From Clostridia bacterium (GTDB taxonomy: Bacteria; Bacillota; Clostridia; Monoglobales; Monoglobaceae), in NCBI GenBank assembly GCA_045586925.1, contig JAZNBG010000035.1, forward strand, positions 6,417 to 70,416: 64,000 nt of DNA, in the 5' to 3' direction. The position numbers were made by a program, and so were the translations under genes. Below the pieces are notes generated by a model. It ran no database searches. It was not told the origin of the DNA and worked only from the letters and a program-made list of their open reading frames with translations. This document shows, piece after piece, positions 19,167-45,585 of this stretch. Within the stretch, counting starts at the first letter, position 1, and every line of letters begins with the position of its first letter.

Positions 19167-19271
19167 GGCGATGTGCTAAATCTCTACAAATTATGCGCTT
19201 TTAAGCCTGATTTTGCATTTTGAGAGGTGATGGTTTAACACTTTTTATTATGGGAAGACGGAGGGGTGAAA

Positions 19272-21140: not shown

Positions 21141-21256
21141 ACTAAGAAGTCGATATAACATTACAGATTATACTCAAACACAAATTAGTAAATCATACTT
21201 GACTAATTTATTTTTATATGCTATAATGTAGATAACCTAAAATGGAGGTCATGTAT

Positions 21257-22648: not shown

Positions 22649-22649
22649 T

Positions 22650-24737: not shown

Positions 24738-24746
24738 GAGGAATAA

Positions 24747-25901: not shown

Positions 25902-26018
25902 TGATAGTCAGATGTGTGAAGTTTTTTGATTTGCATATACCAAGAGCTCAAAAAAACATAGACTTTAGATAAGATTGATGTTTAAGTGATTGAACTCTTC
26001 TTACAGGAGGGAATATAA

Positions 26019-28908: not shown

Positions 28909-29051
28909 CACAAAAATTATACTATATTCCCCTTGAAAAGTCAATTAAATGATTTTATTTCTTACCAATCTCCAGTTGAACTGCCTTTGTCAAAAAGTGT
29001 ACTTTTTGGTAAAGCTATCAAGTTATTAGCTAATGGAGGTGTTCGACAAGA

Positions 29052-29552
29052 ATGGAAAACAACAGAGAACAGGAACTGAGGAAGCATAGATGCTGTTTTA
29101 CAGGTCATAGACCTGATAAAATGATACAAGGCGAAAAAGAGATTAAACCGCTACTTGAGGCGGCTATAGATAAGGCAATAGCTGAAGGTTATGTAACTTT
29201 TTTAACGGGCATGGCAATGGGGACAGATATATGGGCTGCTGAAATAATTTTAGATAGAAAGAAAAAGAACAAAAATTTACATCTTATTTGCGCACTGCCG
29301 CATCCTGGCTTCGATAGCAAAAGAAGTGTTGCAGAGAAAATACGGTTTGCAAAAATACTAAAGAAAGCAGATATAGTAAGAGAAATAAGCAATCACTTCT
29401 TCAAGTCATGTTACCAAAAACGAAATGAATGGATGGTTGACAGATCAAATTTGGTTATAGCGGTATTCAACGGAGAACCAAGTGGGACTAAAAATACGGT
29501 CATTTACGCTCAAAGGAAGGGCGTAGAAATCAATAATGTTTTAAAAAACTAA
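29052..29552 (+). CDS. SLOG-superfamily protein (DUF1273/YpsA-like)
   Basis: CCFTGHRP motif near the N-terminus and a Rossmann-like body. Confidence 0.5.
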   Translation: MENNREQELRKHRCCFTGHRPDKMIQGEKEIKPLLEAAIDKAIAEGYVTFLTGMAMGTDIWAAEIILDRKKKNKNLHLICALPHPGFDSKRSVAEKIRFAKILKKADIVREISNHFFKSCYQKRNEWMVDRSNLVIAVFNGEPSGTKNTVIYAQRKGVEINNVLKN

Positions 29553-29637
29553 ATATACAAATACAACAAATCATTGACAACTTCATTATATTATTTTAAA
29601 GCAGTGGTAGAATATATACATAAAGGAGTTGTCGAAT

Positions 29638-30477
29638 ATGAAAAGAATTACAAACGAATTAATTAAGAAATTCAGAGAATATCTGTTAAGTGAAGAAAAG
29701 GCAGTAGCAACGATAGAAAAGTATATCCACGATGTTCTTGTGTTTATGACTTGGCTTGCAGGAGCAGAGGTTACCAAAATGGCAGTTCTTGAATATAAAC
29801 AGGAACTAACTGAGAAGTATGCTCCCACAAGTGTTAATGCCGCGCTTTCTTCGTTGAATAGTTTCTTTGTTTTCAATGAATGGTACGATTGTAAAGCGAA
29901 AGCTGTGAAAATTCAAAAGCAGATTTTTGCCAATAAAGAGAAGGAATTATCAAAGGCTGAATACGAAAGACTGCTTTTAGCGGCAAAACAAAAGAAAAAT
30001 CAAAGACTTTACTTTCTTATGCAGACGATATGCAGCACCGGGATACGTGTATCTGAGTTGAGATTTATAACAGTTGAAGCTGTTTTAAGAGGACAGGCAC
30101 ATATTAACTGTAAAGGTAAGATGCGGGTTGTTATTCTCACAAATCAACTCTGTAAAATGCTGAAGAACTATATAAAAGATAATAAAATAATAAGTGGCTC
30201 GGTTTTTGTTACTAAAACAGGTAAGCCACTTGATCGTTCTAATATATGGTCGGATTTGAAAAAACTCTGTGAATGTGCGGGAGTAGATAAAGAAAAAGTT
30301 TTTCCACATAATTTTAGGCATTTGTTTGCGCGCACTTATTATACTTTGCAAAAAGATATAGTTCGTCTTGCTGATATCCTCGGTCATTCCAATGTAAACA
30401 CTACAAGGATTTACACAATGGAAAGCGGAGAGATGCATCGCAAGCAATTGCAAAAACTTGGATTACTGATATGTTAA
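29638..30477 (+). CDS. tyrosine site-specific recombinase (XerC/D-like integrase family)
   Basis: Core-binding domain plus the catalytic R...HxxR...Y pattern (GIRVSEL, HNFRHLFA, RIYTM). Confidence 0.85.
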   Translation: MKRITNELIKKFREYLLSEEKAVATIEKYIHDVLVFMTWLAGAEVTKMAVLEYKQELTEKYAPTSVNAALSSLNSFFVFNEWYDCKAKAVKIQKQIFANKEKELSKAEYERLLLAAKQKKNQRLYFLMQTICSTGIRVSELRFITVEAVLRGQAHINCKGKMRVVILTNQLCKMLKNYIKDNKIISGSVFVTKTGKPLDRSNIWSDLKKLCECAGVDKEKVFPHNFRHLFARTYYTLQKDIVRLADILGHSNVNTTRIYTMESGEMHRKQLQKLGLLIC

Positions 30478-30645: not shown

Positions 30646-30847
30646 TAGAGTTTCGATGAAATTTTACAAAATTCTCTCAAATCATTGACATTTCGATAAT
30701 AATATGTTACCATATTAAAGTATAATTATGTATAGAGCAGTTGTGCGTACCACATAAGAGAAATTATGTTGTAAGTGGAGTTTATTTTTTTTGAGTAAAA
30801 TTATGACCGACTGGTCGGTATAGTGTAAACAAAAAGAGGTGTTACTA

Positions 30848-31417
30848 GTGCTTAGCGATGAACAGAGAGAACAGAAAAAGCAAGAATTGCTGGAAAAATG
30901 CTTTGAACTTTTCGTAAAACAAGGATTAGAGAATACCAGTCTGAACGAGTTGGTGGCATACTGCAATGTTCACAAATCAACTATGTATAGCTACTTGGCG
31001 TCAAAAGATGAGATTGTAATCGAATGTGCAAAAATGCATATGCTTGAACTTGATAAGATGTTCAGCAATGTATTTAAAAATCCACCAAATACACTTAAAG
31101 AAGTATTGCAACATGGTTTTGAAAAGATTGTAGAGGAAAAAAGTAAACTAAGGTTTGTATATCAGGTTATATCAAGTCCATTGTACGGAGAACAGGCACA
31201 AAAAGAGTTATCTTCAATTTATATGAAATATGTAGATTATTCTGAACCTATTGCAAAGATGTATAAGGTTGATGAAGCAGAATTTAGGACATGCTTTGTT
31301 TTATTTTTAAGTACAATGCATGACTATTGTATGTGGGGGAATGAATTCCTTGCTAGAGAAAAGTTGGTATACATATATAACAAGGTAACGGAATTAGACA
31401 AAAATAAAGCAAATTAA
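30848..31417 (+). CDS. TetR/AcrR family transcriptional regulator
   Basis: N-terminal HTH (KQGLENTSLNELVAYCNVHKSTMYSY); GTG 30848 is 9 nt after AAAGAGG. Confidence 0.65.
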   Translation: MLSDEQREQKKQELLEKCFELFVKQGLENTSLNELVAYCNVHKSTMYSYLASKDEIVIECAKMHMLELDKMFSNVFKNPPNTLKEVLQHGFEKIVEEKSKLRFVYQVISSPLYGEQAQKELSSIYMKYVDYSEPIAKMYKVDEAEFRTCFVLFLSTMHDYCMWGNEFLAREKLVYIYNKVTELDKNKAN

Positions 31418-31432: not shown

Positions 31433-32569
31433 ATGGCTATAATTGATAGAATAAAATATGATGGTCCACAAGATGCTTCGCCATGGTTGATTCACAAATA
31501 TCCAAGTGAAGAATTTGTTTTAGGTTCGCAGTTGATTGTAAATCAGGGACAAGAGGCTTTGTTCTTCAAAGGTGGAGAAGCACTCGATTTATTTGGTGCG
31601 GGAACTCACACTTTACATACGGGAAATCTACCCTTACTGAAAAAAATAGTTAATTTACCGTTTGGTGGAGAAACACCGTTCTCAGCAGAAATTTATTATA
31701 TTAATAAAACTTCAAAATTAGATATGAATTGGGGTACTGCAAACCCATTTCAGCTTGAAGATCCCAAATATGGTCTTATATTATCTATAAGATCACACGG
31801 CAAGTATGGATTGCGTATTACGGATTCAAGAATGTTTGTTAATGAGCTTGTTGGCGCTATTCCTAATGGTGCAACAGTAAACTATCCGTTTGTTGCAAGT
31901 TATTTTAGTGGTTTGTTAACTACATATGTAAAAACTGTTATTTCTAATTTTATGATAAAACAAAAGATTTCTTTTCTTGAGGTAACGGCGTACTTAAGGG
32001 AATTATCGGAAGAATGCCAAAAAGAGATTTCAAACGAGTTCGATAAATATGGTGTTGAAATACAAAATTTCTTTATTGAAGCTATTTCACCTCCAAAAGA
32101 AGAATTTGAAAAGCTTCGCACATATAAAGAAGAGTTGTCTTTGGGAAATGATTTCTATAAACAACGTCGTTCTTTTGATGTATTAGAAAAATTGGCAGAT
32201 AACCCCAATGCAGGTGGAATGGCTAATGCAGGAATCGGATTGGGTATGGGCTTAGGGGTCGCTCCTAATATGGGAAATATTTTTGGTGGAATTGGTGAAA
32301 ATACCATGAATATCAATGGTCAGACAGGCGCGCAAGGAAAAGTATGCCCTAAATGTTCTGCCCAGGTTGCTGAAGGATTAAAGTTCTGTGGTAATTGTGG
32401 GGAGAGGATTAGCAATTCGTTGATATGTCCATCATGCAATCATGAAAATCCTGAAAATACTAAGTTCTGTGGCAACTGTGGTCAAAAACTTGTAAACAAA
32501 TGCAGCGAATGTGGAACAGAGAACGATTTAGGTCAAAAATTCTGCGGTAATTGTGGAAATAAACTGTAA
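31433..32569 (+). CDS. SPFH/band-7-like protein with three C-terminal zinc ribbons
   Basis: N-terminal SPFH-like region (DGPQDASPWLIHKYP...) and three CxxC...CGNCG ribbons at the C-terminus. Confidence 0.65.
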   Translation: MAIIDRIKYDGPQDASPWLIHKYPSEEFVLGSQLIVNQGQEALFFKGGEALDLFGAGTHTLHTGNLPLLKKIVNLPFGGETPFSAEIYYINKTSKLDMNWGTANPFQLEDPKYGLILSIRSHGKYGLRITDSRMFVNELVGAIPNGATVNYPFVASYFSGLLTTYVKTVISNFMIKQKISFLEVTAYLRELSEECQKEISNEFDKYGVEIQNFFIEAISPPKEEFEKLRTYKEELSLGNDFYKQRRSFDVLEKLADNPNAGGMANAGIGLGMGLGVAPNMGNIFGGIGENTMNINGQTGAQGKVCPKCSAQVAEGLKFCGNCGERISNSLICPSCNHENPENTKFCGNCGQKLVNKCSECGTENDLGQKFCGNCGNKL

Positions 32570-32589
32570 AAGAGGTGAAAAGACAGAAT

Positions 32590-35500
32590 ATGGGCAAATA
32601 TATAGCATATTTTTACATAGACAATCAATTAATGCAATTTGATCTCGACTTGTTGCTAAATAATTGTGTTGATAATTATTTAGGTGAATCAATTCTTCCG
32701 GTAGGAAGTAAGCAACTATTTCCCATTAAAACAGAGAATAAAAAATATTACCTTTATGGGAATTTTAGCAATTGGAAAATTGTTTGTAACGGAAGTGAAG
32801 TCGGAGAAAAAGTTGAAATATCACATGGAAGTTACATCAATTTTTCATCTAAGAAAAGCTCCTATTCTGTTTTGATATCAGAAACAGCTAACTTTAGTAT
32901 ATATAATAATTGTTTGGAAATTCAAAAAAATCAGAATATCTTTATAGGTAGGGCTCCGGAGAGCAACATTGTAATAGATATTAACGATAGTGTATCAAGA
33001 AAACATGCAGCAATAAGATTAGATGCATCAGGCAATGGCTTTGTTGAGGATTTGTCACGTAAAACAGGTGTTTTCCTAAATGGAAAAAGAATTGTTTCAA
33101 GCGAAATAAAATGTGGGGACATTATTCATATAATGGGTGTGTCTATATGTTTTATGGGGACATTTCTTGTTGTTCCTAAAAATATTGTTACAAACGGGAT
33201 GAAAGAGGTCAAGTCTTTTAATGTTGCGCAGCCAACAGATAAAGAGCTTGAAGATACTTATGCAAGGACACCAAGAATATTAAAGTCATTGGATAGAAAC
33301 AAAATAATTATAGATGCACCTACACAGCCTCAAAAATCCAAACAACAACCTTTTATTCTGGTTGCGGGACCTTCTGCGACAATGGCATTAGGTATGATGG
33401 CTAGTTTTGGAGTAACTTTAGCTAATGCACTGAATGGTGGAAACATATCTTCAACTATTACCGGTGGTGTAATGGTTATAAGTATGTTGTTGGGTTCTTT
33501 AATGTGGCCTTCTTTACTTAGAAATTACACTAAAAGACAAGAAATCGCAAATGAAAAGTATAGAGTAGAGAAATATAAATACTATTTGTCGGAAAAAGAA
33601 GCAGAAATAAGAAAATCCTACGAAAGAAATTGCAGAATATGGAATGAAAATCTTTTGCCAGCACCCGATAAATTGTCTCAAATTGTTTTTGAACGAGGTA
33701 TAAATCTTTGGGAAAGAACATTTACAGATGAGGACTTTCTGCAGGTTAGACTTGGAATAGGTGCCAAATTATTTGAAACAGAAATCCAACATCCAAATAA
33801 AGGCTTTACATTGCATGATGACGCATTGATAGATGAAGCAATAAACTTAGCAAACAAATATAAAATGTTAGAAAATGTTCCAATTAGCGTATCATTAATA
33901 AACCAAAGAACAGTTGGAATAGTTGGAGAAAGTGAAAAAATACATAATACACTTAGATGTATGATTCTAAACACGGTTGCACTTCACTCACCTGAGGATG
34001 TAAAGATTTGTGTTATTTGTAATGAACTTCAAATTGAGCAGGTAGAGTGGATAAAAGATTTGCCTCATTGTTGGGATTCTGCTAAAACAACACGATATTT
34101 TGCAACTAATAATATGGAAGCACAAAGACTGCTCAATGATATGGATGAGAAAATTCAAGAAAGAGAAGAATTGATTGACAAAGATGCAATCAGAACCCCT
34201 CATACCATAGTTGTTGTTTTGGATGAAAAAGTAGTTGAAAATATACCTTTTTATAGATACTTAATTGATTCCAAAAACAATGTAGGCATATCCTCTATTT
34301 TTATTGCAGAACACTTTAATAGAATACCTAAAGAGTGTACTGCAATAATTCAAAACGAAAAAGATATATGCGGAATTTATACAAAGAATGAAAACGATAA
34401 TAGATTTGTTTGTTTCAAATCTGATGAGTTTAAACTGACGGATGCTAAAAAAATCAGTCAGAGTATGTCTGAGATTCCGGTTAAGGTTGAGAAAACAAAA
34501 CTTAGTGTTCCTAACCGTGTATCATTTTTGGATATGTATAAGGTGGGAAATATTGAGAATCTTTCAATTGAACAAAAATGGGCAAATAATATGTCAGACA
34601 AAACGCTTGCTGTTCCTATTGGAATAAAAGCAGGCGGAGAATTGTTCTGTTTGGATATACACGAAAAACACCATGGTTGTCACGGATTAGTTGCCGGAAT
34701 GACAGGCTCGGGTAAAAGTGAATTTTTACAGGCATTTATATTATCAGCATTAATTAATTTTAGTCCTAATGAAATTGCATTTGTACTGGTGGACTTTAAA
34801 GGTGGAGATATGGCTCGACCATTTTTGAAGGTTCCGCATCTTTCTGCAACTATATCAAATCTATCCGAAAATATTTTGTATAGAGCATTGATTTCTTTGG
34901 AGGCAGAAGTAAAATCAAGACAAAAAATATTTAATGAAGCCGCATCATTGTTGGGCATTGATAAAATTGATATTAATTCATACCATAAATATTTTAAGGA
35001 AGGTAGATTAACATTACCATTACCACACTTAGTAATTGTAATAGATGAGTTTGCACAATTGAAATCTCAACAACCTGAATTCATGGCTAAACTTGTTGAA
35101 ATAGCTCAGGTCGGAAGAAGTTTAGGAATTCATCTGATATTAGCAACGCAAAAACCGAGCGGTGTTGTTGATCCGCAAATATGGAGCAACTCAAGATTTA
35201 AAGTATGTTTGAAAGTGTTGGATAAGCAGGATAGTACGGAAATGATAAACAGACCGGATGCTGCTTTAATTAAATCTCCTGGACGTGCTTATGTTCAGGT
35301 CGGCTATGATGAAATTTTCGAACAGTTACAGTCAGGTTATAGCGGTGCTGATTATGTTGAACAAAAAGAGTATACAGATGATGAAGATGTAACAATAAAA
35401 CTTATAGATTCTGCTGCTATGCCAATTAGAAGCGCTCGTAGTATATCAGGAAATCTTAAGAGTGGTAAGACACAGTTAGAAGAAACTATAAATAAGATTG

Positions 35501-37239
35501 TTGAAATCGCTGATGAAAAGGGATTAAGTGTAAAGCCTTTGTGGTTGGAGCCACTAAAGGAAACAATATATCTTACAGAATGTGTTGATAAGTTATACAC
35601 AGATTCTTTCGAAATTTGTTGGGATCAAGATTTAGATATCTCAACTACATTGGGAATCATCGATATAATTGAAACACAGAAACAGATACCTTTAAATATT
35701 TCATTGCCGCAGAGCGGACATATTGCTATTTATGGTTCTTCTGGAACTGGAAAGACTACATTGTTACAAACAATTATTTTCTCGCTGGCAACAAAATATT
35801 CACCGGAACTGTTAAACATTTTTGCTTTTGATTTTGGCGGACGCAATTTAGGGAATTTATCGCTTCTTCCGCATTGCGTTAACGTAGCTTTTGGCGATGA
35901 AGAGGACAAAATTTCATATATGTTTGAGCAGATACTTGAATGTATCGAATCAAGAAAAGTTTTGTTTGCAAAAAATAACTGCGCTACATATGAATCGTAT
36001 TTAGCAACAACAAAAAATAAACTTCCTGCAGTTCTTTTGGTGCTGGATAACTATGCTATATTCAGAGAAAAAATGTTCAAGAATGAAGATGATTTAGTTA
36101 GAATTGTTGCTAATGCAAAGGCGTACGGAATATATTTGATCGTTACAGGAAATAGCAAGAATGCAATTTATTACAAAGTTTCTGAACACATATCAAATAA
36201 TATTACTTTGCGTATGAATGATAAAATGAATTACCGTGATATATTAAATGTTTCTATACCTATTGAACCTGATAATATCAAAGGAAGAGGGTTGACAGTC
36301 TTTAATAAAAAAGCGGTAGAAATTCAGGCAGCACTTCCGTTGGAAGCAGAGAACGAGGCTGACAGAGCTGAAAAGCTGAACAAAATATACACTGCTATGT
36401 CACAGGCATATAACGGAACCAATGTGGCTAGTGTTTACTCTTCTTCAACTGAAAATAGTAAATCTAATATTTCAGAAGAAAATAGTACAATTAAAACATC
36501 TGTTATTTCAACAAGGAAAGTTCCGTCAACACTTCCTATTGTTAATGCTGATGATCATACAATTGTTTGTGGTTCTTCTGTTGTAAGCGGTCAGCTTCAA
36601 GGGTTTGAAATGCGTAATACTACAAATGTATTTATAGGTGTTAATGGTTCTGAATATCCAAATCGATTGCTTGAAAGAATTATTAATTTAAACAATGCTG
36701 CATTTTACGATATTTGCTCCTCATCATCGTTAGAAGGTGAATTTATTACATCGGTAAATACGGAATCTGAAATTCATGAAATGCTTCAAAATCTCGTTTA
36801 TGAAGTTAATGATCGAGAGAGTGAACTTCAAATGTTGCAGGCTGCGAATGTCGATGATTCTGAAGTATACGGATATATGCAAAAATATAAGAGGATTTTC
36901 TTGTTGATAAGAAGTTTCTCTAAGTTCTATGATGAGATAAGTGATGATGATTTAAAATTGTTGTTGACAATGTTGAAGAAGCAACGTCATCTAGGTATAT
37001 ATATTCTCACCATAGATGATATTGAAAGTATAGAACCATATTGTGATACAGCTTTATACATTGAATTAATAAAAACCGAAAAAGGCGTTGTTCTTGGTGG
37101 CAATATTAGTGATAAACAGGCGGCTCGATTGTGTAAACAATTCTCTGAAATACCTGTTGCAGAAAGAAACAAGAAACTGTCTGATAACAATGCATTTATG
37201 TATAATGATGCAAAATGGTCAGTAATTGAAATCAATTAA
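32590..37239 (+). CDS. essC: type VII secretion (T7SSb) FtsK/SpoIIIE-family ATPase EssC/YukB-like with an N-terminal FHA domain
   Basis: FHA signature (GR...SRKHA...NG), TM helices, then three FtsK-like domains with Walker A GMTGSGKSEF and GSSGTGKTTL. Start may be GTG 32575 or ATG 32590. Confidence 0.85.
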   Translation: MGKYIAYFYIDNQLMQFDLDLLLNNCVDNYLGESILPVGSKQLFPIKTENKKYYLYGNFSNWKIVCNGSEVGEKVEISHGSYINFSSKKSSYSVLISETANFSIYNNCLEIQKNQNIFIGRAPESNIVIDINDSVSRKHAAIRLDASGNGFVEDLSRKTGVFLNGKRIVSSEIKCGDIIHIMGVSICFMGTFLVVPKNIVTNGMKEVKSFNVAQPTDKELEDTYARTPRILKSLDRNKIIIDAPTQPQKSKQQPFILVAGPSATMALGMMASFGVTLANALNGGNISSTITGGVMVISMLLGSLMWPSLLRNYTKRQEIANEKYRVEKYKYYLSEKEAEIRKSYERNCRIWNENLLPAPDKLSQIVFERGINLWERTFTDEDFLQVRLGIGAKLFETEIQHPNKGFTLHDDALIDEAINLANKYKMLENVPISVSLINQRTVGIVGESEKIHNTLRCMILNTVALHSPEDVKICVICNELQIEQVEWIKDLPHCWDSAKTTRYFATNNMEAQRLLNDMDEKIQEREELIDKDAIRTPHTIVVVLDEKVVENIPFYRYLIDSKNNVGISSIFIAEHFNRIPKECTAIIQNEKDICGIYTKNENDNRFVCFKSDEFKLTDAKKISQSMSEIPVKVEKTKLSVPNRVSFLDMYKVGNIENLSIEQKWANNMSDKTLAVPIGIKAGGELFCLDIHEKHHGCHGLVAGMTGSGKSEFLQAFILSALINFSPNEIAFVLVDFKGGDMARPFLKVPHLSATISNLSENILYRALISLEAEVKSRQKIFNEAASLLGIDKIDINSYHKYFKEGRLTLPLPHLVIVIDEFAQLKSQQPEFMAKLVEIAQVGRSLGIHLILATQKPSGVVDPQIWSNSRFKVCLKVLDKQDSTEMINRPDAALIKSPGRAYVQVGYDEIFEQLQSGYSGADYVEQKEYTDDEDVTIKLIDSAAMPIRSARSISGNLKSGKTQLEETINKIVEIADEKGLSVKPLWLEPLKETIYLTECVDKLYTDSFEICWDQDLDISTTLGIIDIIETQKQIPLNISLPQSGHIAIYGSSGTGKTTLLQTIIFSLATKYSPELLNIFAFDFGGRNLGNLSLLPHCVNVAFGDEEDKISYMFEQILECIESRKVLFAKNNCATYESYLATTKNKLPAVLLVLDNYAIFREKMFKNEDDLVRIVANAKAYGIYLIVTGNSKNAIYYKVSEHISNNITLRMNDKMNYRDILNVSIPIEPDNIKGRGLTVFNKKAVEIQAALPLEAENEADRAEKLNKIYTAMSQAYNGTNVASVYSSSTENSKSNISEENSTIKTSVISTRKVPSTLPIVNADDHTIVCGSSVVSGQLQGFEMRNTTNVFIGVNGSEYPNRLLERIINLNNAAFYDICSSSSLEGEFITSVNTESEIHEMLQNLVYEVNDRESELQMLQAANVDDSEVYGYMQKYKRIFLLIRSFSKFYDEISDDDLKLLLTMLKKQRHLGIYILTIDDIESIEPYCDTALYIELIKTEKGVVLGGNISDKQAARLCKQFSEIPVAERNKKLSDNNAFMYNDAKWSVIEIN

Positions 37240-37255
37240 ATAGGAGGTGTATAAT

Positions 37256-38044
37256 ATGAATTTTTCTGACAAATCTTTACATTTAACATATGATGAGTTT
37301 TATGCATTAATGTGTTTGTTAGGTGCAAAAAGTGTTCAAGGAACTTTTGTTGAAAATCATAATAATATATCTCCAAATGATTTCGAGAATATATGGGCAG
37401 TCTGCGAAAAATCACTGATTTCTAAAGGATATATGACATTAGACGGTGAGGATTTGCAGCTGGATATTAGTTTATATAGCATTATAACAGCATGTGTGAA
37501 TGCCGAAAGAAAATATAGTGTACAATTGTCAAAAGATAAATCCAATATTATTGATACAGTTTTTTATGATGGAAATAAGGCAATGGTATGTATCAATAAT
37601 TGTGATGAAAAGAAAGAGGTTTATTTAAGTTATTGCAATAAAAAGAAATCTTTTGATAATGTGGTTAAGGAAATTCCGGATATTACACAAAATATGCTTA
37701 ACGAAAAATCTGCTGAAATTACCCTTTCACAGCAGGAATATTTCACACTCATGTCTAGTGCTAATTTGGGGGACTATACCAAGGCTCGAAATCTATTCCC
37801 TGATGATATGGAAGAAGAATATTTAATGGATTTGATAAACACATTAAAAAATTCTTATGGGTTACTATCGGTTAATGAATTTGAAGATGAGGAAATTAGC
37901 ACTTACAGCATTTTATTTGGAAAAGAATCTTTATGGGCTATTTATGCACAGGATGAAGAAACAATATCCTTTAAATTGGTATCCAAAACTGATTTAGAAG
38001 ATAGCCTCGCGCAAACTTTTGGTTATGACGGAGGTGGCAAATAA
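37256..38044 (+). CDS. hypothetical cytoplasmic protein in the T7SS locus
   Basis: 263 aa, acidic, no TM; ATG 37256 is 8 nt after AGGAGG; overlaps the esaB start. Confidence 0.45.
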   Translation: MNFSDKSLHLTYDEFYALMCLLGAKSVQGTFVENHNNISPNDFENIWAVCEKSLISKGYMTLDGEDLQLDISLYSIITACVNAERKYSVQLSKDKSNIIDTVFYDGNKAMVCINNCDEKKEVYLSYCNKKKSFDNVVKEIPDITQNMLNEKSAEITLSQQEYFTLMSSANLGDYTKARNLFPDDMEEEYLMDLINTLKNSYGLLSVNEFEDEEISTYSILFGKESLWAIYAQDEETISFKLVSKTDLEDSLAQTFGYDGGGK

Positions 38045-38045
38045 A

Positions 38046-38303
38046 ATGACTGAAAAAATTACGTTATCGGTATGTGTACTAGGAATTAATAAAAATTGTG
38101 ATTTTTCTGTTCCGACAAATATGTCAGTTAGAGAAGCAATTAAGTTAATGAAAAAGGTGATAACCGAAGAATATTGGGGTAACTCACCTATGCCAAAGAG
38201 CAGAATGAATTTGATGAAGTTGTCTGATCTTGAGGTATTAAATGATTCATTGAGTTTTGCCCAACTCGGTATTTCAAGTGGAGAAAGATTGATTTTTGTT
38301 TAA
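38046..38303 (+). CDS. esaB: EsaB/YukD-like ubiquitin-fold T7SS protein
   Basis: ~85 aa; a beta-grasp-type pattern ending in ...LGISSGERLIFV, as in YukD (...GDRLEIL); lies directly after essC. Confidence 0.65.
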   Translation: MTEKITLSVCVLGINKNCDFSVPTNMSVREAIKLMKKVITEEYWGNSPMPKSRMNLMKLSDLEVLNDSLSFAQLGISSGERLIFV

Positions 38304-38317
38304 GGAGTGTAAAAAAT

Positions 38318-38614
38318 ATGGCAACGTTTAGAATTAACTATTCAAGAGTTATTTCGCAAGCTAACTCTATGAATAATTTAAGTGGCGATCTTTCTTCTGA
38401 AATACGTAGGTTAGAAAATATGTTAAGCGAAGCTCGAAGTAATTGGAAAGGTCCAGCATCAGAAACATTTCAAAGACAATTAAGTAATTTAATAGGAGAT
38501 ATGAAGAACACAAAAAGTAAAATGTCAAGTGTTTCAAGTACAATTAAGAGTGTCGCAAGAAGGATACAAGCAGAAGATGAGCGAGCTGCTGAAAGAGCAA
38601 AAAAACTGAAATAA
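38318..38614 (+). CDS. WXG100 family protein (EsxA-like)
   Basis: 98 aa helical hairpin with a central W-x-G (NWKGPASETF). Confidence 0.8.
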   Translation: MATFRINYSRVISQANSMNNLSGDLSSEIRRLENMLSEARSNWKGPASETFQRQLSNLIGDMKNTKSKMSSVSSTIKSVARRIQAEDERAAERAKKLK

Positions 38615-38632
38615 GAATTTGGAGGTGGAAAT

Positions 38633-38743
38633 ATGGAAGCTGCGGCTGCAACACCGATTAATTCAGTAGCAAGTACAGTGGTACCTATAGCGGTTGCTGT
38701 GCTTGTTGGAGTGGCAATTTTCGCTTTTTTAAGGCGAAAGTAA
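38633..38743 (+). CDS. unannotated 36-aa single-TM micropeptide
   Basis: GGAGGTGG 6 nt upstream of the ATG; MEAAAATPINSVASTVVPIAVAVLVGVAIFAFLRRK has an Ala/Val-rich TM helix and a basic tail. Confidence 0.4.
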   Translation: MEAAAATPINSVASTVVPIAVAVLVGVAIFAFLRRK

Positions 38744-38809
38744 AGATTAACTTAGGGTTATAAAATAATTATTATAACAAAATTATTTTTCGAAAGGAGC
38801 AAATTTATT

Positions 38810-39121
38810 ATGGCAAACGCATGGTCAGTAACCACAGAAAGACTTACATCTTCTGCAAACATTTTGGAGGAAAAAGTCGCAACGTACAATTCAGAATGGG
38901 GCAAACTTTACACAGAGGTTCAGAATTTAAAATCCTCACAGTGGCAGGGTATCGCAAGTGATGCATTCAACGCAAAACTTGAGTCCTACAAAAATGATTT
39001 TGAAGAATTAGCAAAAGTATTGAACAGCTATAAAGATTTCTTGAAATCAGCAGCAGAAAGATATGAGAAAACAGAAGAAGCAGTAAAAGATGCAGCTGGA
39101 AATCTTAATGCCGGAATATAA
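38810..39121 (+). CDS. WXG100 family protein
   Basis: 103 aa; W-x-G at SQWQGIASDAF. Confidence 0.8.
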   Translation: MANAWSVTTERLTSSANILEEKVATYNSEWGKLYTEVQNLKSSQWQGIASDAFNAKLESYKNDFEELAKVLNSYKDFLKSAAERYEKTEEAVKDAAGNLNAGI

Positions 39122-39145
39122 ATAAAATTTTAGGAGGATTTTAAA

Positions 39146-39445
39146 ATGGCTACAATTAAAGTTGATTCAACAGTAATGAGAGACAAAGCAGGCACATTTA
39201 AGAATGTTGCTAACACAATAAAAAATTTAACAGATGAAATGACTCAGGAGATAGAAAGTTTACGTTCAGCATGGGAAGGCGAATCCGCTGAAGCAACTGT
39301 ATCAAAATTTAAAAGTTTAGCTTCAACATTTGAAGAAAAGTTCAATACAATTAACCAGTATGCATCTTTCCTTGAGGAAGCAGCTAATGCTTATGACGAT
39401 GCAGAAAAGGCTGTCGCTCAGGGAGCAGAAGGCACACAGGCTTAA
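39146..39445 (+). CDS. WXG100 family protein
   Basis: 99 aa; W-x-G at SAWEGESAEA; AGGAGG RBS. Confidence 0.8.
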   Translation: MATIKVDSTVMRDKAGTFKNVANTIKNLTDEMTQEIESLRSAWEGESAEATVSKFKSLASTFEEKFNTINQYASFLEEAANAYDDAEKAVAQGAEGTQA

Positions 39446-39531
39446 TTTGAAGTTTGATAAACACAGAGGCATATAAAATGCATATCTGAAATTATATGTC
39501 TCTGTGAAGTTTGAATTAAGGAGGTGTAAAG

Positions 39532-40791
39532 GTGCCTTACATAAAAGTTGACACAAGGAGATTATCCAACTTTGGAAATGTTGCATCTTCTACAAGAGGT
39601 AGAGTTGGTAATATAAAATCTTCATTTTCCTCTATTGGGAGTTCTCTTGATTGGGATGTAAAGGCTTGTTCTGGTATCAATAGGACAATAAGCCAAATTA
39701 ACAACGAACTTTCAGCAGAGATGTCGAGTTTAAGGAGAATTGAAACTTTTTTTGATTTGGCAGTTAGGAAATATAATGACGCCGAAAAATCCAAAGAAAA
39801 ACTATCAAAAATTCCTCAAACGAGAAGGGTAGCTACTCTTGGTCCAGGAGGTAGAATGAATAATACAACTAAAAATGTTGCATTATTATCTGTTTATAAA
39901 AATAACAAAGCCAGTATAACATCCCAGGTAAAAGTGAAAGAAAATTCCGAATGGACAAAACTTCTCAAGAAAATAGCAAAAAAAGCAGGTTTCGCTGGCT
40001 CCATTTACGGAATTTTAAGTGGAGAATCTGAAACCATTCAACATATAAAAGATGGAGAATATGCAAAAGCGATGCAGAGCTTTGCTGGAGTGGCGAAAGG
40101 TGTAATTAAAACTGTTCCAAAGATATTTGATAAATATGGAAAGATGAAAAAAGCATCCCATTTATTGACCCCTATGCAGAAATTAAAAAATTGGGGGAAA
40201 TCAATAGTTGGATTAGATGATATGATAAAAGCACCTTCAAAAGCTTCAAAAGTAACATCAAGAATCTATAATAATATGCAAAAGTTAGATATAAAAAAAC
40301 TTGGCAAGGTTACGAAGTGTGATGTTATTATAAGTAGCATTGTAAGTATTATTGGTAATGCCTCTGAATATATGGAAGGCAAGATAAGCGCTGCGAGAGC
40401 GGCAGCTGAAACCATTGGAGAAACTGTAATAGAAATTGGAAAAACCGCACTACTGTATAAAGTAGTTGGTGTTGCTGCAACTGCTGTAGCAAGTGCTGCA
40501 GGCATAGCTGCTGTTCCTGCAATTGCAGTAGCCGGTGCTGTAGTTGTGATTAGTTGGGGCATTGATAAGTTGACAGAAAAACTAACAGGAAAAAATTTCA
40601 CTGAATGGTTATCTGATGGAATAATTGATGTTGCTTCATACGTCGGCAAGTCAGTGAAACAGGTTGCAAATACTGTAGTTCCAGCAATTCGTAATACCTG
40701 TACCAATGTTATAAACAAGGCTGGTGAATTCTTCGGAAACGTAAAAAATGGCGTGAATAATTTCTTTGGAAAATTAAGATTTGCATTTTAA
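39532..40791 (+). CDS. putative T7SS-secreted effector: WXG-like N-terminal helical domain plus C-terminal glycine-zipper membrane-active region
   Basis: N-terminal ~90-aa helical hairpin ending in a YNDAEK-type C-terminal helix like Esx proteins. The C-terminus has VVGVAATAVASAAGIAAVPAIAVAGAVVVISWGI (AxxxG/GxxxA zipper). Confidence 0.45.
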   Translation: MPYIKVDTRRLSNFGNVASSTRGRVGNIKSSFSSIGSSLDWDVKACSGINRTISQINNELSAEMSSLRRIETFFDLAVRKYNDAEKSKEKLSKIPQTRRVATLGPGGRMNNTTKNVALLSVYKNNKASITSQVKVKENSEWTKLLKKIAKKAGFAGSIYGILSGESETIQHIKDGEYAKAMQSFAGVAKGVIKTVPKIFDKYGKMKKASHLLTPMQKLKNWGKSIVGLDDMIKAPSKASKVTSRIYNNMQKLDIKKLGKVTKCDVIISSIVSIIGNASEYMEGKISAARAAAETIGETVIEIGKTALLYKVVGVAATAVASAAGIAAVPAIAVAGAVVVISWGIDKLTEKLTGKNFTEWLSDGIIDVASYVGKSVKQVANTVVPAIRNTCTNVINKAGEFFGNVKNGVNNFFGKLRFAF

Positions 40792-40809
40792 AAAAAGGAG
40801 TGAATTTAA

Positions 40810-41079
40810 ATGATTAAAGATTTATTGCCGGTTGGTAGTGTAGTTTTACTTAAAGGTGGCATAAAAAAGTTAGTTATTATGGGGATTAAGCAGGCTAACG
40901 CTGAAGAACCTGATGTTGAATATGACTATGCAGGAGTAATGTATCCAGAAGGATATTTGGGAAATGATACCCTTTACCTTTTTAACCACGCTGATATAAA
41001 TGATATTATTTTTACTGGATATACCAATCCTGAACGTGATGAGTTTTTATTAGAAGTAGAAAAATTATACAATGATTAA
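40810..41079 (+). CDS. small DUF4176-like protein (candidate immunity or chaperone partner of the upstream effector)
   Basis: 89 aa, MIKDLLPVGSVVLLKGG...; this is a family I recall as recurrent in T7SSb islands; assigned from memory. Confidence 0.4.
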   Translation: MIKDLLPVGSVVLLKGGIKKLVIMGIKQANAEEPDVEYDYAGVMYPEGYLGNDTLYLFNHADINDIIFTGYTNPERDEFLLEVEKLYND

Positions 41080-41863
41080 TGCAGTTGCTTTTTCAAATGT
41101 TGGGAATATCAGGAGTAACCACGAAGACAATTATTTACTTGGCGTTGGCAACCACATTGACGAAGTGATACAGAGGCAAATGAGAAATAATCTCTACATG
41201 CAGAAATCCACCTATACGGGTGATGCAGGTGTATTTGCAGTTTGTGATGGTATGGGTGGACATGCTTCTGGAGAGGTTGCAAGTTATGCAGCTATTTGCT
41301 GGTTAAACAATAAAGCTAATTTATTGCTGAATTCTCAACCTACAGAAATAATCAGTTGCATAACAGAATTGAATTCACATATATGTAATGAAGCTGATAA
41401 ATCCTCATGTTGTAACAACATGGGAAGTACTTTAAGTGCAATGATAATCAATGGCAGAAGTATTCATACCATTAATGCCGGAGATAGCCGTATATATTCC
41501 TTTAAAAATGATAAATTATCACAGATAACTACAGACCACACTGAGGGACAGCGATTATTGGACCTTGGATTACTTACAATGAATGAGTTGCCAGAATTTT
41601 CGTCACGAAAATCGTTATATAAGTACTTGGGACGAAAGGGAGAATTGATAGCTGATGTAGTAGATATTAGTGGTAGTGATGGGTTGTATATGATCTGCAG
41701 TGACGGCCTTACGGATGCACTTAATGATTGCGAAATTGAGGGAATATTTTTAAAACGTGATTCAATTTCGGATATCGGACAAGAGCTAATGGATTCTGCT
41801 TTAGCGAAAGGAAATTTATGTGCTGATAATGTGACGTTATTATTAGTTGAAATATCTTACTGA
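41072..41863 (+). CDS. PP2C-family Ser/Thr protein phosphatase
   Basis: FAVCDGMGGHASGEVAS and downstream Asp motifs (GDSR, DGL); overlaps neighbours on both sides. Confidence 0.85.
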   Translation: MINAVAFSNVGNIRSNHEDNYLLGVGNHIDEVIQRQMRNNLYMQKSTYTGDAGVFAVCDGMGGHASGEVASYAAICWLNNKANLLLNSQPTEIISCITELNSHICNEADKSSCCNNMGSTLSAMIINGRSIHTINAGDSRIYSFKNDKLSQITTDHTEGQRLLDLGLLTMNELPEFSSRKSLYKYLGRKGELIADVVDISGSDGLYMICSDGLTDALNDCEIEGIFLKRDSISDIGQELMDSALAKGNLCADNVTLLLVEISY

Positions 41864-43653
41864 TGAAAGAAGGGATAAATTTGATAGGAAAAACCATTTT
41901 AGGTTATACCATTGAGGAAGAAATTGGTTCGGGTGGTTTTGGAACAGTTTATAAGGCTTATAAAAGGGACGAATCCGGAACATTTATTAGAGCAATTAAA
42001 CATATATCCCTTCCTACAAAAAAACAATACAACGATGTACTAAATTCAATGGGTGGAGATTATGCTAAGGCAGATAACTATTTCAATGATATATTGAACG
42101 ATCTCGTCAGCGAAATAAAGATATTATATAATCTTACAGAGCAAGGAGTTCTAAACGTTGTAAGATATACTGATCACCACATTGAGAAACAACAGAACCC
42201 TATCAAATATGATATATACCTTTCTATGGAATATCTAACACCATTTGACGAATATATCCAAACAAGCAAACTTGCGGTTAGGGATGTTATAAAATTAGGA
42301 AAGGATATTTCAGCTGCACTTATCGCTTGCCATAAGAATACCATTATGCATCGAGATATTAAAGATGAAAACATCTTTGTATCTAACGATGGCACATATA
42401 AATTAGGAGATTTTGGGGTTTCAAAAAAAATGCAAGACAGCTCAAGGGCTGAAAGTATGAAAGGTACACCTAATTATATCGCACCTGAAGTGTATTTAGG
42501 AAAAGGCAAATATGATTGCACTGTCGATATATACTCATTGGGGATTGTATTATACAAGCTTCTCAACTATAATCGTAATCCGTTTTTGCCTGAATATCCG
42601 TTGGAATACAATAGTGTAGATGAAGATAAAGCTTTTGAAATGCGTATGAAAGGAGATACGCCTCCTGCTCCGCTTAATGCAAACAATAAACTTGGCGAAG
42701 TAATTTTGAAAGCTATAAGCATTAGAGAAAATCGCTATAACGATGCAGCCGAGCTATATGAATGCTTAAATGAAATCGAAAAAAGCTTAACAAACGAGGA
42801 ACTTAATAAGGTTGTTATATCTCCAATAAAGAATATTGTTGATAAAAAGCCTGAACCTACACCACAGATTCAGAGTGACAAAAATTTAAAAGAAACTATT
42901 GGTGAAGATTATAATGTAACCAATCAGGAAGAAAAAGAGACAGGAAATGGCGCTCTTTTTGAAACTCATGGAGATGATTATACTCCTCCGGTAATAAAAA
43001 GAGAAGAGTCCCAAACAGAATCTATAGTAACAAAGGACGAAGAAGCAGAAGATTGCATAGAAGATGTTGAACAGGAAAAGCCATTAGTGAAAACAAAAAC
43101 AAGAAAGAAAACTTTGCTATATGTCGGCATGGTTTTGGCTGTATTTGTAGCATTGCTTGGATTTAAAATAGCAAACAATATAATGTCAAAAGATAATTGG
43201 ACCGGATTTAGTCATGTATATAATGTTACTGCTGAAGGAAAATATGCAGACGGAAAAAGCGAAGATGAAACAGGAGAAAAATTTGAAATAGATTCAGAGA
43301 CAATTAAAATGGCTTTGGAAGATAATATTCCTAAAAAATTGCCATTAGATCAAGAATATAACTTTGAATTTACAATATATTCACCTGATATGCCAGAGAG
43401 CATAATGGTTTTAGCCGGTAAAGGTGGCGGATATGTTAATTTCGAATATATATCTTGTGCAGAGGAAACAAGCAAGGCATATATAAAATTTCCGTGGGAG
43501 TTTCAAAGTAACCTTAATGGAGAAACTCTGTATTCCCCAGGAGAGAAAATTAGATTTAGAATTGTGGTAGAATACAGAACGAAAAACGATGATGGTTCTA
43601 CTCGTTATGAGAAAATCTATCTTGATAAAACAGCTTTAACATTAACAAAATAA
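41863..43653 (+). CDS. Hanks-type Ser/Thr protein kinase, membrane-anchored with a C-terminal extracytoplasmic domain
   Basis: GSGGFGTVYKA, AIKHI (Lys), HRDIKDEN, DFG, GTPNYIAPE; one TM helix (LLYVGMVLAVFVALLGF). Confidence 0.9.
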   Translation: MKEGINLIGKTILGYTIEEEIGSGGFGTVYKAYKRDESGTFIRAIKHISLPTKKQYNDVLNSMGGDYAKADNYFNDILNDLVSEIKILYNLTEQGVLNVVRYTDHHIEKQQNPIKYDIYLSMEYLTPFDEYIQTSKLAVRDVIKLGKDISAALIACHKNTIMHRDIKDENIFVSNDGTYKLGDFGVSKKMQDSSRAESMKGTPNYIAPEVYLGKGKYDCTVDIYSLGIVLYKLLNYNRNPFLPEYPLEYNSVDEDKAFEMRMKGDTPPAPLNANNKLGEVILKAISIRENRYNDAAELYECLNEIEKSLTNEELNKVVISPIKNIVDKKPEPTPQIQSDKNLKETIGEDYNVTNQEEKETGNGALFETHGDDYTPPVIKREESQTESIVTKDEEAEDCIEDVEQEKPLVKTKTRKKTLLYVGMVLAVFVALLGFKIANNIMSKDNWTGFSHVYNVTAEGKYADGKSEDETGEKFEIDSETIKMALEDNIPKKLPLDQEYNFEFTIYSPDMPESIMVLAGKGGGYVNFEYISCAEETSKAYIKFPWEFQSNLNGETLYSPGEKIRFRIVVEYRTKNDDGSTRYEKIYLDKTALTLTK

Positions 43654-43698: not shown

Positions 43699-45585
43699 TT
43701 GATAGGACAAACAATTTTGGGATATACAATCGAAGAAGAAATAGGTTCAGGTGGCTTTGGCACAGTATATAAAGCGAGAAAAAGTAACCAATCAGGAACT
43801 TATGTGCGTGCAATTAAACATATATCCCTTCCTACAAAAAAACAATACAATGATGTTTTGAACTCAATGGGTGGAGATTATTCGAAGGCGGACGATTATT
43901 TTTCGGATATCCTAAAAGATATTGTTGGAGAAATTCAAATATTAAATAACCTTACTGAACAAGGTGTTCGTAACGTTGTTTGGTATTATGAAAATCAAAT
44001 AGATGAGTGCCAATCTCCACTAAGGTATGACATATATATTTTAATGGAATATCTAACCCCGTTTGATGAATACATACAAGTAAATGAATTTACGGTGAGA
44101 GATGTAATAAAACTAGGTAAAGATATTGCAACAGCACTTGTTGCTTGTCATAAAAATAATGTTATACATCGTGATATTAAAGATGAAAATATATTTGTTG
44201 CAAACGACGGAACATATAAATTAGGTGATTTTGGAGTATCAAAGAAACTTCAAGACCGTTCCCGGGCTGAAAGTATGAAAGGTACACCAAATTACATTGC
44301 ACCAGAGGTATATTTGGGTAGAGGAACCTACGATAATACTGTAGATATATATTCACTTGGGATAGTGTTATATAAATTACTTAATTATAATCGTAATCCA
44401 TTTATGCCTAAATATCCTGAACCATTCAACAGCAATGATGAAGATGTTGCCTTTGAAAACAGAATGAAGGAATTAACACCAGAACTTCCTCAAAATGCTG
44501 AAAACAGTCTTGGTAACATCATTTTGAAGGCTATTGGAAAGCGTGATGAACGTTATGATTCAGCAACAGATTTTTTAGATATTCTTATGGAAACTGAAAA
44601 AAGCTTAACAAACGAGGAATTGAACAAGGTTATAATCACACCTGTAGCAAACGATAAACAGCAAACAGCAGGAACAGTGAATAAAGAAAGTAATATTCCT
44701 CTGAAAGAAACAATTGGTGAGAATTATGAGGTTACGTCAAATGTTGTTAAGGGACAAGGAAATGGGAATCTTTTTGAAACTCAAGGCGAAAAATATGTTC
44801 CACCAGTATTGCCGGATGAGCCAAAAAGGATAATTCATGAAGCAAAAGCGGAGCCTCCTAAAATAGAAACACCCAAAGAAGAAAAATATGAATATGATTA
44901 TGCTCCAAAAGGTCCTCGTACTGCACCACCAGAAGAACCGCATGTTGAACCTATTCAAAAAGGAAGTTTTGATTGGTTATTATATGCTACACCTTTTGTG
45001 ATTTTATTGGTATATATCGTATTGTTTTTCGTGTTACTACCAAAAGCTTATGATAACACAGTATCATTTATAGATTGGGCAATTAAAAATCCGCAGGATT
45101 TGCTTGAAGCGATGAAATCGTCTGATAATGTATTGCCGCCAATATATAAGGTTATTTTCCTTAAATTATTAAATATAGCGTTGTTTTCAGGGTTGGTTAT
45201 ATCGTTATATTTCATCGGAAGAAAACTTCATTTTTCTAAACCAAATTATGCATCCAATGCAACATTGATAGACAAAGAAGCTTACTATTTGTCCTTGGAA
45301 ATATACGAAGAATTAAAGGCTGAATCTATACCCAATACGTCAGATATTATATCTTCTGTAAAAGTAGTACATGACAGATTGAAAAATGATAGCTCTTTTG
45401 GTATAGGAAATCAAAGTGTGATTCGTTGCGAACAGGAAATTGAGTCACTATTAAGAGTTGTTCAGTCAAATATTGCAGGTTTGAAAAATGATAGTACATT
45501 TTCTGGCTCAAAACAGACTATACTAACTTCCTGCAACAGAATAATGGCAAAAATCAAAATGAGAACAGAGTTAAAAAAGAGATAA
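43699..45585 (+). CDS. Hanks-type Ser/Thr protein kinase, tandem paralog with a two-TM C-terminal region
   Basis: Kinase domain ~75% identical to 41863-43653 with all catalytic motifs intact; TTG start; C-terminal region diverged. Confidence 0.9.
   Translation: MIGQTILGYTIEEEIGSGGFGTVYKARKSNQSGTYVRAIKHISLPTKKQYNDVLNSMGGDYSKADDYFSDILKDIVGEIQILNNLTEQGVRNVVWYYENQIDECQSPLRYDIYILMEYLTPFDEYIQVNEFTVRDVIKLGKDIATALVACHKNNVIHRDIKDENIFVANDGTYKLGDFGVSKKLQDRSRAESMKGTPNYIAPEVYLGRGTYDNTVDIYSLGIVLYKLLNYNRNPFMPKYPEPFNSNDEDVAFENRMKELTPELPQNAENSLGNIILKAIGKRDERYDSATDFLDILMETEKSLTNEELNKVIITPVANDKQQTAGTVNKESNIPLKETIGENYEVTSNVVKGQGNGNLFETQGEKYVPPVLPDEPKRIIHEAKAEPPKIETPKEEKYEYDYAPKGPRTAPPEEPHVEPIQKGSFDWLLYATPFVILLVYIVLFFVLLPKAYDNTVSFIDWAIKNPQDLLEAMKSSDNVLPPIYKVIFLKLLNIALFSGLVISLYFIGRKLHFSKPNYASNATLIDKEAYYLSLEIYEELKAESIPNTSDIISSVKVVHDRLKNDSSFGIGNQSVIRCEQEIESLLRVVQSNIAGLKNDSTFSGSKQTILTSCNRIMAKIKMRTELKKR

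Follow-up and report, generated by a model that had tools for sequence, protein, structure and literature searches.

What is a type VII secretion system (T7SS) locus that has a motor ATPase of the EssC type and no gene for EssB, EsaA or EssA: a remnant, an outlying part of a system encoded elsewhere, or a machine complete in itself? The question is raised by a cluster of genes, all on the + strand, in a 64,000-nt stretch (the window) of contig JAZNBG010000035.1, from a clostridial genome assigned to the Monoglobaceae. To our knowledge, research on the T7SSs of Firmicutes has been almost wholly concerned with T7SSb, the form containing EssA, EssB and EsaA; other component sets were recognised in 2024, and we know of none that has been studied experimentally. 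We consider it likely that the present cluster is a complete T7SS of an alternative, apparently unnamed subtype, gated by a kinase and an FHA domain and equipped with EspG-like and SPFH proteins, and not a stripped-down T7SSb.

An earlier note on this DNA had listed the genes between 32575 and 41079 and described them as a reduced T7SSb-like locus. The gene list was correct, every gene being present and intact at its coordinates on the + strand. The limits given to the locus were too narrow: the conserved unit runs from an SPFH gene (starting at 31433) through phosphatase, kinase and accessory genes to 51294. It lies in an array of 20 + strand genes (30839–51294, from a TetR gene to a YidD fusion) with intergenic gaps of –8 to 86 nt, a packing that is operon-like; all 20 open reading frames (ORFs) are intact, and ribosome-binding sites were seen where the DNA was read (37200–41100). 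The EssC/TsxC ATPase (32575–37239) scores 1019.8 bits against NCBIfam TIGR03928 (T7_EssCb_Firm; cutoff 778.4), matches the Pfam families FtsK_SpoIIIE (5e-61) and FHA (1.4e-15), and has two transmembrane (TM) helices at about residues 258–315; the Walker A motif occurs in strict form twice (GMTGSGKS at 708, GSSGTGKT at 1054), so the description of it as an FHA-domain EssC with two canonical P-loops was sound. Equally, the absence of EsaA, EssA and EssB from the locus was borne out: no match to the Pfam or NCBIfam models of YukC/EssB (PF10140), EsaA or EssA was found among the substantial ORFs of the window, and for EssA there was no Pfam match in the window, ORFs under 80 aa having been scanned in part. 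Re-annotation brought none of the three to light, and EssC is the only protein of more than 700 aa in the genomic island that carries the cluster. In the window, the model scans that had been proposed gave passing matches for EssC, WXG100 and DUF4176, a match below cutoff for YukD (PF08817), and none for EssB or EsaA. What stands of the earlier description is that this is a real T7SS locus with a T7SSb-type EssC; ‘reduced’ does not stand, because a different and conserved set takes the place of the absent parts, comprising an EspG-fold chaperone, a PP2C phosphatase, a Ser/Thr kinase, an SPFH–zinc-ribbon protein and a phosphothreonine-competent FHA domain.

That the set is conserved can be seen from 11 related loci (L001, L002 and L004–L012), in which the identity of EssC to that of the window falls from 97% to 42%. 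The loci came from the contig context of graded EssC homologues (L001, L002/L003 and L006–L012) and from a scan of a genome collection with a single EssC query (L004 and L005), which returned two metagenome-assembled genomes (MAGs) and is too strict for mapping distribution. The view extended in most cases about 10 kb to either side of EssC, in some cases less, and the L005 locus is cut short. Wherever the contig reaches, the related loci contain an FHA-EssC, a YukD-like protein, three WXG100 proteins, a counterpart of a 419-aa protein discussed below, a DUF4176 protein and a kinase; in nearly all, a PP2C phosphatase and an SPFH–zinc-ribbon protein are encoded as well, and many have an EspG-like protein, a TPR protein, a homologue of a 219-aa protein and a YidD fusion. 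For the relatives with gene calls, the precomputed Pfam lists contain no EssB, EsaA or EssA family. The core of the locus recurs from Bacilli to gut Clostridia, and among its carriers are Cytobacillus firmus (L009) and Paenibacillus aurantiacus (L012), both annotated only as having EssC.

To find EssB, EsaA and EssA missing is no novelty in itself: Garrett, Higginson and Palmer (PMC11217815) reported in 2024 that many T7SSs of Gram-positive bacteria are without these three proteins, and defined eight subtypes, T7SSc–j, among which kinases, PPM phosphatases and FHA proteins occur in several. What, then, occupies their place here? Part of the answer may lie in EssC, whose FHA domain has the pocket residues G125-R126, S141-R-K-H144 and N169-G170; the GR pair and the Ser are kept in 17 out of 17 sampled members of its clade. 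The EssC proteins of T7SSb have 0% GR and 0% SxxH, whereas the figures for the kinase-linked subtypes d, e and j are 98–100% (Table S1 of Garrett et al., PMC11217815). On the evidence of these residues, the FHA domain of the present EssC can probably read phosphothreonine. The array also encodes the other elements of such a circuit. A PP2C/PPM phosphatase (41072–41863; Pfam PP2C, 4e-11), equivalent to TsxF, has a DGMGG motif at residue 59, its gene overlapping that for the DUF4176 protein by 8 nt; it is present in L001, L002, L004, L006–L010 and L012. The core Ser/Thr kinase, STK2 (43699–45585; Pkinase, 5.9e-43), is the equivalent of TsxD and has two TM segments, with its C-terminal domain predicted to lie in the cytoplasm. 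Like a second kinase of the array, it keeps the AIK, HRD, DFG and APE motifs and is, as far as motifs can tell, catalytically intact. Its linker contains the threonine motifs KE-T-IGE and LFE-T-xG (T338 and T361), which are recognisable in the otherwise unalignable linkers of the kinases of L002, L008, L009, L010 and L012, including those of Cytobacillus and Paenibacillus, and which we would nominate, purely by inference, as candidate docking sites for the FHA domain.

The genes between essC and the phosphatase gene supply the putative substrates and chaperones. First comes a 262-aa protein (37256–38044, from an ATG at 37256), which is the ‘263-aa unknown’ of the earlier note. It has no Pfam or NCBIfam match, and a sequence search produced only 11 clusters, none of them annotated; the sequence family is rare, as an exhaustive hidden Markov model (HMM) search gave 26 representatives. 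Only fold comparison was informative, placing the protein in the EspG fold at about 10% sequence identity to EspG. There follows a small ubiquitin-like protein of 85 aa (38046–38303), which we take from its position and a weak PF08817 match (22.3 bits, below the cutoff of 27; E 2e-4) to be YukD/EsaB-like and equivalent to TsxB. When its family profile was compared with PDB, weak matches to ubiquilin ubiquitin-like domains were obtained (E about 0.4), and a gene for a protein of 77–96 aa occupies the same position in all of the gene-called relatives.

The three WXG100 proteins score 47–54 bits against PF06013 (cutoff 27.3 bits). WXG1 (38318–38614; 47 bits, also matching TIGR03930) is an EsxA-like candidate core substrate with W43-K-G and a conserved C-terminal RIQxEDE..AAERA, and has orthologues in eight other loci. 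WXG2 (38810–39121; 52.5 bits) has W45-Q-G and an export-type motif, Y85-E-K-T-E, and its orthologues are 54–99% identical in the loci compared. WXG3 (39146–39445; 53.8 bits), with W43-E-G and Y83-D-D-A-E, also passes the PPE model (PF00823, 32.2 bits; cutoff 26). The three form separate orthologue groups, each with its own conserved motifs, in eight or more loci: they are anciently diverged and are core parts, not variable accessories. Between WXG1 and WXG2 is an ORF for a 36-aa peptide (38633–38743) that has, by hydrophobicity, a single TM segment and ends in RRK; an ORF of the same design is found in L001, L002, L004 and L005 and in none of L006–L012, so that it is limited to the lineage with EssC at least 73% identical.

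Two further components complete the set. Only 5 nt upstream of essC is the gene for an SPFH protein (31433–32569; Band_7_1, 3e-44) with three C-terminal zinc ribbons (Zn_Ribbon_1, 1e-17) and no TM segment; counterparts lie in or adjoining the cluster in L001, L002, L004, L005, L007–L010 and L012, with 62–99% identity where measured. We propose that it is a membrane scaffold or a partner in membrane protection; flotillin is reported to scaffold the Staphylococcus aureus T7SS (PMC5718613). The second is a small chaperone of the DUF4176 (Ltc) type (40810–41079; PF13780, 86.3 bits; PDB 9dcs, 9.8e-9). Members of DUF4176 are toxin chaperones by experiment and stabilise T7SSb toxins (PMC12478183), and in T7SSb loci their genes are clustered with those for LXG toxins, Lap proteins and immunity proteins.

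What might such a chaperone serve? The DUF4176 gene lies 18 nt 3′ of that for the 419-aa protein (39532–40791), which is conserved and, to judge from its sequence and hydrophobicity, substrate-like. Its N-terminus is a WXG-like helix-turn-helix with the turn LDWD at residues 39–42, followed by Y81-N-D-A-E; after a middle region that is helical but poorly predicted, residues 312–343 form an Ala/Gly/Val-rich hydrophobic hairpin, and the protein ends in an NFFGK tail. It has no Pfam match (and none to the LXG model PF04740 at E up to 5), and a profile search of PDB sequences found nothing. In the AlphaFold2 model the mean pLDDT is 37, too low to allow a search by fold, the hairpin being of moderate confidence and the rest below 50. 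The earlier picture of a WXG-like protein with a glycine-zipper C-terminus therefore stands as regards the N-terminal LDWD hairpin and the hydrophobic segment, the glycine zipper itself coming from family members, a few of which match the Gly-zipper and WXG100 models weakly. The design is kept in eight loci, although identity falls fast and the homologues range from 324 to 502 aa: D40, W41 and Y81 are invariant in the aligned loci, YxxxD/E occurs in six out of eight, and the N-terminal hairpin, the hydrophobic hairpin and a W-F-G-K-type C-terminal tail recur in most of them.

It is likely that the 419-aa protein is exported and inserts into membranes. Its role as an antibacterial toxin is another matter, and is unproven, because the protein and the three WXG100 proteins are a conserved core with no obvious immunity-type gene alongside. 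In the window, the DUF4176 gene is followed directly by that for the phosphatase, with no immunity-type gene between, and none is obvious beside the 419-aa-type gene in the 11 related loci (unannotated genes for proteins of 226–272 aa in L007, L008 and L009 were not examined). The suggestion that three WXG100 paralogues and a toxin point to interbacterial competition is accordingly weak, all four genes being positionally conserved in the relatives. A stronger form of it, in which fast divergence marked the 419-aa protein as a classic polymorphic toxin, was entertained and dropped, since the same C-terminal design recurs and no immunity gene is obvious.

Could the protein, then, be a structural or self-acting membrane component, for instance by contributing to the export conduit or by forming a pore for the producer's own use? 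This seems to us somewhat doubtful, even though the machine is otherwise without an EsaA-like membrane partner, no locus has an obvious immunity-type gene after the 419-aa-type gene, and the conservation of design, position and C-terminal tail is unlike that of polymorphic toxins, in which C-terminal domains are swapped. The contrary evidence is that the protein diverges much faster than its neighbours, with 59% identity in L001 where the flanking genes have 97–100%, as is typical of effectors under diversifying selection, and that its gene has two small helical partners before it and a DUF4176 gene after it, DUF4176 genes being found with those for LXG toxins in T7SSb loci. The LXG/Lap/Ltc modules (TelA, TelE and TspA) have just such an arrangement of two small helical genes, a larger protein with a helical N-terminus and a small DUF4176 gene, and TelE and TspA have a membrane-active glycine-zipper C-terminus, which the 419-aa protein resembles in sequence pattern. 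By this analogy, glycine-zipper LXG toxins such as TelE may be taken as the closest functional precedent. The differences are that the 419-aa protein has no LXG match in Pfam, has true WXG100 partners, belongs to a fixed core, and lacks an obvious immunity gene.

If the cluster is a complete T7SS, does it belong to one of the subtypes already described? Compared by components, its gene set matches none of T7SSc–j. T7SSe and T7SSj come closest in having a kinase, a PPM phosphatase and a phosphothreonine-competent FHA-EssC, together with a putative YukD-like protein, multiple WXG100 proteins and small TM and zinc-ribbon proteins, and T7SSj is clostridial. Membership of one or other, with the differences put down to truncation or annotation, would also be in keeping with the TPR protein, and yet it is improbable. 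Neither the large secreted Ig-like protein with a C-terminal TM segment (TsxI) nor the DUF6382–FHA protein (TsxJ) of those subtypes occurs in the window or in any relative: no ORF of the TsxI kind and no Ig-like Pfam match was found in the island or the gene-called relatives, EssC gave the sole FHA match, and no DUF6382 was found when the unknown proteins were tested to E 5. (Candidates for a TsxK-like protein are the zinc-ribbon proteins, for example that encoded at 46229–47422 with one TM segment.) Conversely, the EspG-fold, SPFH–zinc-ribbon, 419-aa and DUF4176 proteins of the present locus are not components of T7SSe or T7SSj, and its core kinase differs in having two TM segments and, by prediction, a cytoplasmic C-terminal domain. 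There is no mention of SPFH, DUF4176, YidD or Cytobacillus in the paper describing these subtypes, or in the part of its flanking-gene annotations that was available (PMC11217815), and searches of the literature turned up no further named subtype, whether with SPFH or as ‘T7SSk’. The subtype appears to be both widespread and unnamed.

Resemblances to the remaining systems are more partial. The locus shares an EspG-like TsxG chaperone with T7SSc, T7SSh and T7SSi, but differs from T7SSc and T7SSh in having the FHA domain on EssC, and nothing in it matches the vWA protein (TscE) of T7SSc. From T7SSf it differs in having two kinases where T7SSf has none, and in lacking the TsfV AAA+/TadZ-like ATPase in its operon. 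With the mycobacterial ESX systems (T7SSa) it has in common an EspG-fold chaperone encoded beside helical-hairpin substrates, one of which passes the PPE model, and YxxxD/E motifs at the ends of the hairpins; it differs in having no EccB, EccD, EccE or MycP and a Firmicute-type EssC, and only about one residue in ten is shared with EspG. Further afield, the PpkA/PppA/Fha system of type VI secretion systems also combines a membrane kinase, a PP2C phosphatase and an FHA reader, encoded with the secretion machine, although that machine is unrelated, and in the present case the FHA reader is fused to the motor ATPase.

There remains the case for a T7SSb of the usual kind, with the genes for EssB, EsaA and EssA at another place in the genome and the island a partial, dependent module. 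That EssC passes the Firmicute T7SSb model and that only 64 kb of the host is visible are points in its favour, and there are other likenesses to T7SSb: the two EssC types belong to one HMM family and have an N-terminal FHA region, an EsxA-type WXG100 protein and a putative YukD/EsaB-like protein are encoded, and the hydrophobic substrate is surrounded by helical partners and a DUF4176 chaperone. It is nevertheless distinctly improbable, in view of the 11 related loci (some on contigs as long as 437 kb and 222 kb) that lack EssB, EsaA and EssA and have the same alternative partners. In addition, the phosphothreonine pocket of the FHA domain, absent from the EssC of T7SSb, is conserved here; a kinase that is active by its motifs, with a PP2C phosphatase, stands in the EssB-like role that a pseudokinase has in T7SSb; and the operon has three core WXG100 genes and, besides these, genes for an EspG-fold chaperone and an SPFH protein.

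Several points count against a complete alternative machine. Nothing like EsaA or TsxI was identified that would span the envelope as a conduit, and the inspection covered 64 kb of the host genome, so partners acting in trans may be encoded elsewhere. The SPFH gene is absent from L006 and L011, and the PP2C gene from L011, and these may perhaps be accessory, not core. In one EssC subclade (the P0027 group), the His of SxxH is replaced, while the PP2C gene and a kinase-like gene are still present. The match behind the YukD-like assignment falls short of the Pfam cutoff, the 419-aa protein is poorly modelled, and its LXG or glycine-zipper character comes from sequence pattern and weak matches. 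Phosphorylation, FHA docking, secretion and membrane activity are all predictions.

How might a complete machine of this kind work? In T7SSb the EssB pseudokinase binds the FHA domains of EssC (PMC11217815), and because of this the exchange of a pseudokinase for a kinase is plausible. On this scheme, the membrane kinase would replace EssB and would phosphorylate itself or a partner on linker threonines (in the core kinase, T338 and T361); the GR/SxxH/NG pocket of the EssC FHA domain would then dock on the phosphothreonine, bringing about assembly or activation of the EssC machine, and the PP2C phosphatase would reset the switch. WXG1 would be the EsxA-like core substrate, whereas WXG2, WXG3 and the N-terminal hairpin of the 419-aa protein, all three with YxxxE, might come together in a bundle and so create the export signal. 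The EspG-like and DUF4176 chaperones would hold the hydrophobic cargo soluble before export; the 419-aa protein, once exported, would enter the membrane by way of its glycine/alanine-rich hairpin; and the SPFH protein might scaffold the machine or protect the membrane of the producer.

More tentatively, and with rather less confidence than we have in the completeness of this locus, we suggest that it represents an unnamed and widely spread subtype (‘T7SSk’), extending from Paenibacillus and Cytobacillus to abundant uncultured Clostridia, in which an active membrane kinase replaces EssB, phosphothreonine recognition by FHA gates assembly, an EspG-like protein and three WXG100 proteins handle a conserved substrate that inserts into membranes and lacks any obvious immunity partner, scaffolding falls to an SPFH protein, and the whole moves on integrative islands, one of them interrupting a gene that is expressed in the forespore of Bacillus subtilis. 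The locus would then be a further coherent component set, in which features of T7SSb (the EssC type and DUF4176) are joined to features of T7SSa (the EspG fold and a PPE-like WXG protein) and which carries a complete circuit of kinase, phosphatase and FHA reader. Since Cytobacillus firmus and Paenibacillus aurantiacus are culturable, the idea that a kinase stands in for EssB is directly testable. Does a subtype whose putative membrane-active substrate is conserved, with no obvious immunity gene, serve antagonism at all? And, being found on mobile islands in uncultured Clostridia, including gut MAGs, it could spread horizontally.

The island in question is a region of low GC content (0.33 vs 0.43), about 36.6 kb long (19140–55712), that splits spoVAD. 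One part of the gene (18519–19166) corresponds to positions 2–212 of NF006160 and the other (55697–56104) to positions 206–335; the junctions share CCTG (19140–19143 and 55709–55712), at which the halves rejoin in frame (...MAP|AAADT...), and just inside the right end is the gene for a large serine recombinase (53898–55580, + strand; Pfam Resolvase, Recombinase and Zn_ribbon_recom). The earlier claim that the secretion locus is cargo of an element splitting a sporulation gene was therefore well founded, and the T7SS module as a whole is probably horizontally mobile. The island has four recombinase genes (28234–30477, 52675–53535 and 53898–55580), for a small resolvase, two tyrosine integrases and the large serine recombinase, which suggests a nested or composite element; a resolvase–YpsA–integrase block precedes the T7SS in L001 too, as a related block does in L007. 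Given its composite make-up, its four recombinases and its foreign GC content, the island might be expected to carry decaying, non-functional cargo, but that this cluster is such cargo is hardly credible when 20 of its 20 ORFs are intact, catalytic motifs are preserved, and the protein sequences of the orthologues are conserved in distant taxa.

In its organisation the island resembles skin (in sigK), SPbeta (in spsM) and gin (in gerE), which likewise split a sporulation gene precisely, have a large serine recombinase at one end, and permit in-frame rejoining over a short core. The classic intervening elements that we know of are all in mother-cell genes. In Bacillus subtilis, spoVA is by contrast a forespore (sigma-G) operon, and by analogy this argues against the classic scheme of mother-cell excision. 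Were the island to be excised in the forespore, it would be lost from the germ line; either spoVAD is therefore simply inactivated here or its regulation is unusual. A further difference is that the cargo is a secretion system and defence genes, not a prophage remnant; a literature search for an intervening element in spoVAD found none. The defence genes make up the left third of the island (21242–27585), with a PDC-S27-like ATPase (ATPase_2/DUF234), a Kiwa pair (KwaA, 26019–26660, and a KwaB-like protein, 26653–27585), and methylase and specificity subunits of a type I restriction–modification system, of which no restriction subunit was seen. At the extreme left end, just inside the attachment site, is a gene of the Gp49/RelE-like toxin family (19266–19625).

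Of the other genes in the array, the first encodes a TetR-family regulator (30839–31417; TetR_N, 1.9e-8), copies of which in L001 and L004 are 97% and 91% identical; among other relatives an HTH_3 regulator is found in this position, with helix-turn-helix genes there in L002 and L012. Scans for promoters and terminators in the window gave counts equal to those of shuffled controls and were uninformative. An RNA hairpin is nevertheless predicted between WXG3 and the 419-aa gene (39441–39520, + strand; –27.3 kcal/mol, z –4.2); it has no U tract, and none of 200 shuffled sequences folded as well. It may provide for different transcript levels of the small and the large genes.

The additional Ser/Thr kinase, STK1 (41863–43653; Pkinase, 5.6e-42), is a paralogue that is 66% identical to STK2 over residues 1–416 and has one TM segment and a different, probably extracellular, C-terminal domain. 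It has no counterpart in L001 or L002 and is outside the conserved core. After the kinases come genes for a recurrent 197-aa accessory with a zinc ribbon and TPRs (45603–46196; Pfam TPR and DZR), homologues of which occur in L001, L002, L004 and L008, while genes for proteins of 196 and 153 aa adjoin the SPFH gene in L009 and L012; for two beta-lactamase2-like membrane proteins, the first with a zinc ribbon and one TM segment (46229–47422) and the second with TM segments (47432–48445); and for a zinc-ribbon protein of 485 aa with multiple TM segments (48519–49976), these assignments coming from Pfam and TM scans. The last three are lineage-specific, all three being common only to L001, with weak partial matches in L004 to two of them, one being a beta-lactamase2-like protein. 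The two beta-lactamase2-like proteins could be envelope sensors for the kinases.

The array closes with two recurrent accessories, a 219-aa protein without Pfam or PDB match (50061–50720) and a TM–YidD fusion (50764–51294; YidD, 5.9e-18). Both have homologues in L002 and L008, and the former also in L004. Directly after the YidD fusion is an unannotated ORF for a 79-aa protein with several hydrophobic segments (51317–51556), for which a Pfam scan gave no match. Part of the 485-aa zinc-ribbon protein gives weak matches inside the genes for the 219-aa homologues of L004 and L008, to which it appears to be related, and the domain of the 219-aa type (its fold unassigned) recurs beside SPFH and TPR genes in distant loci.

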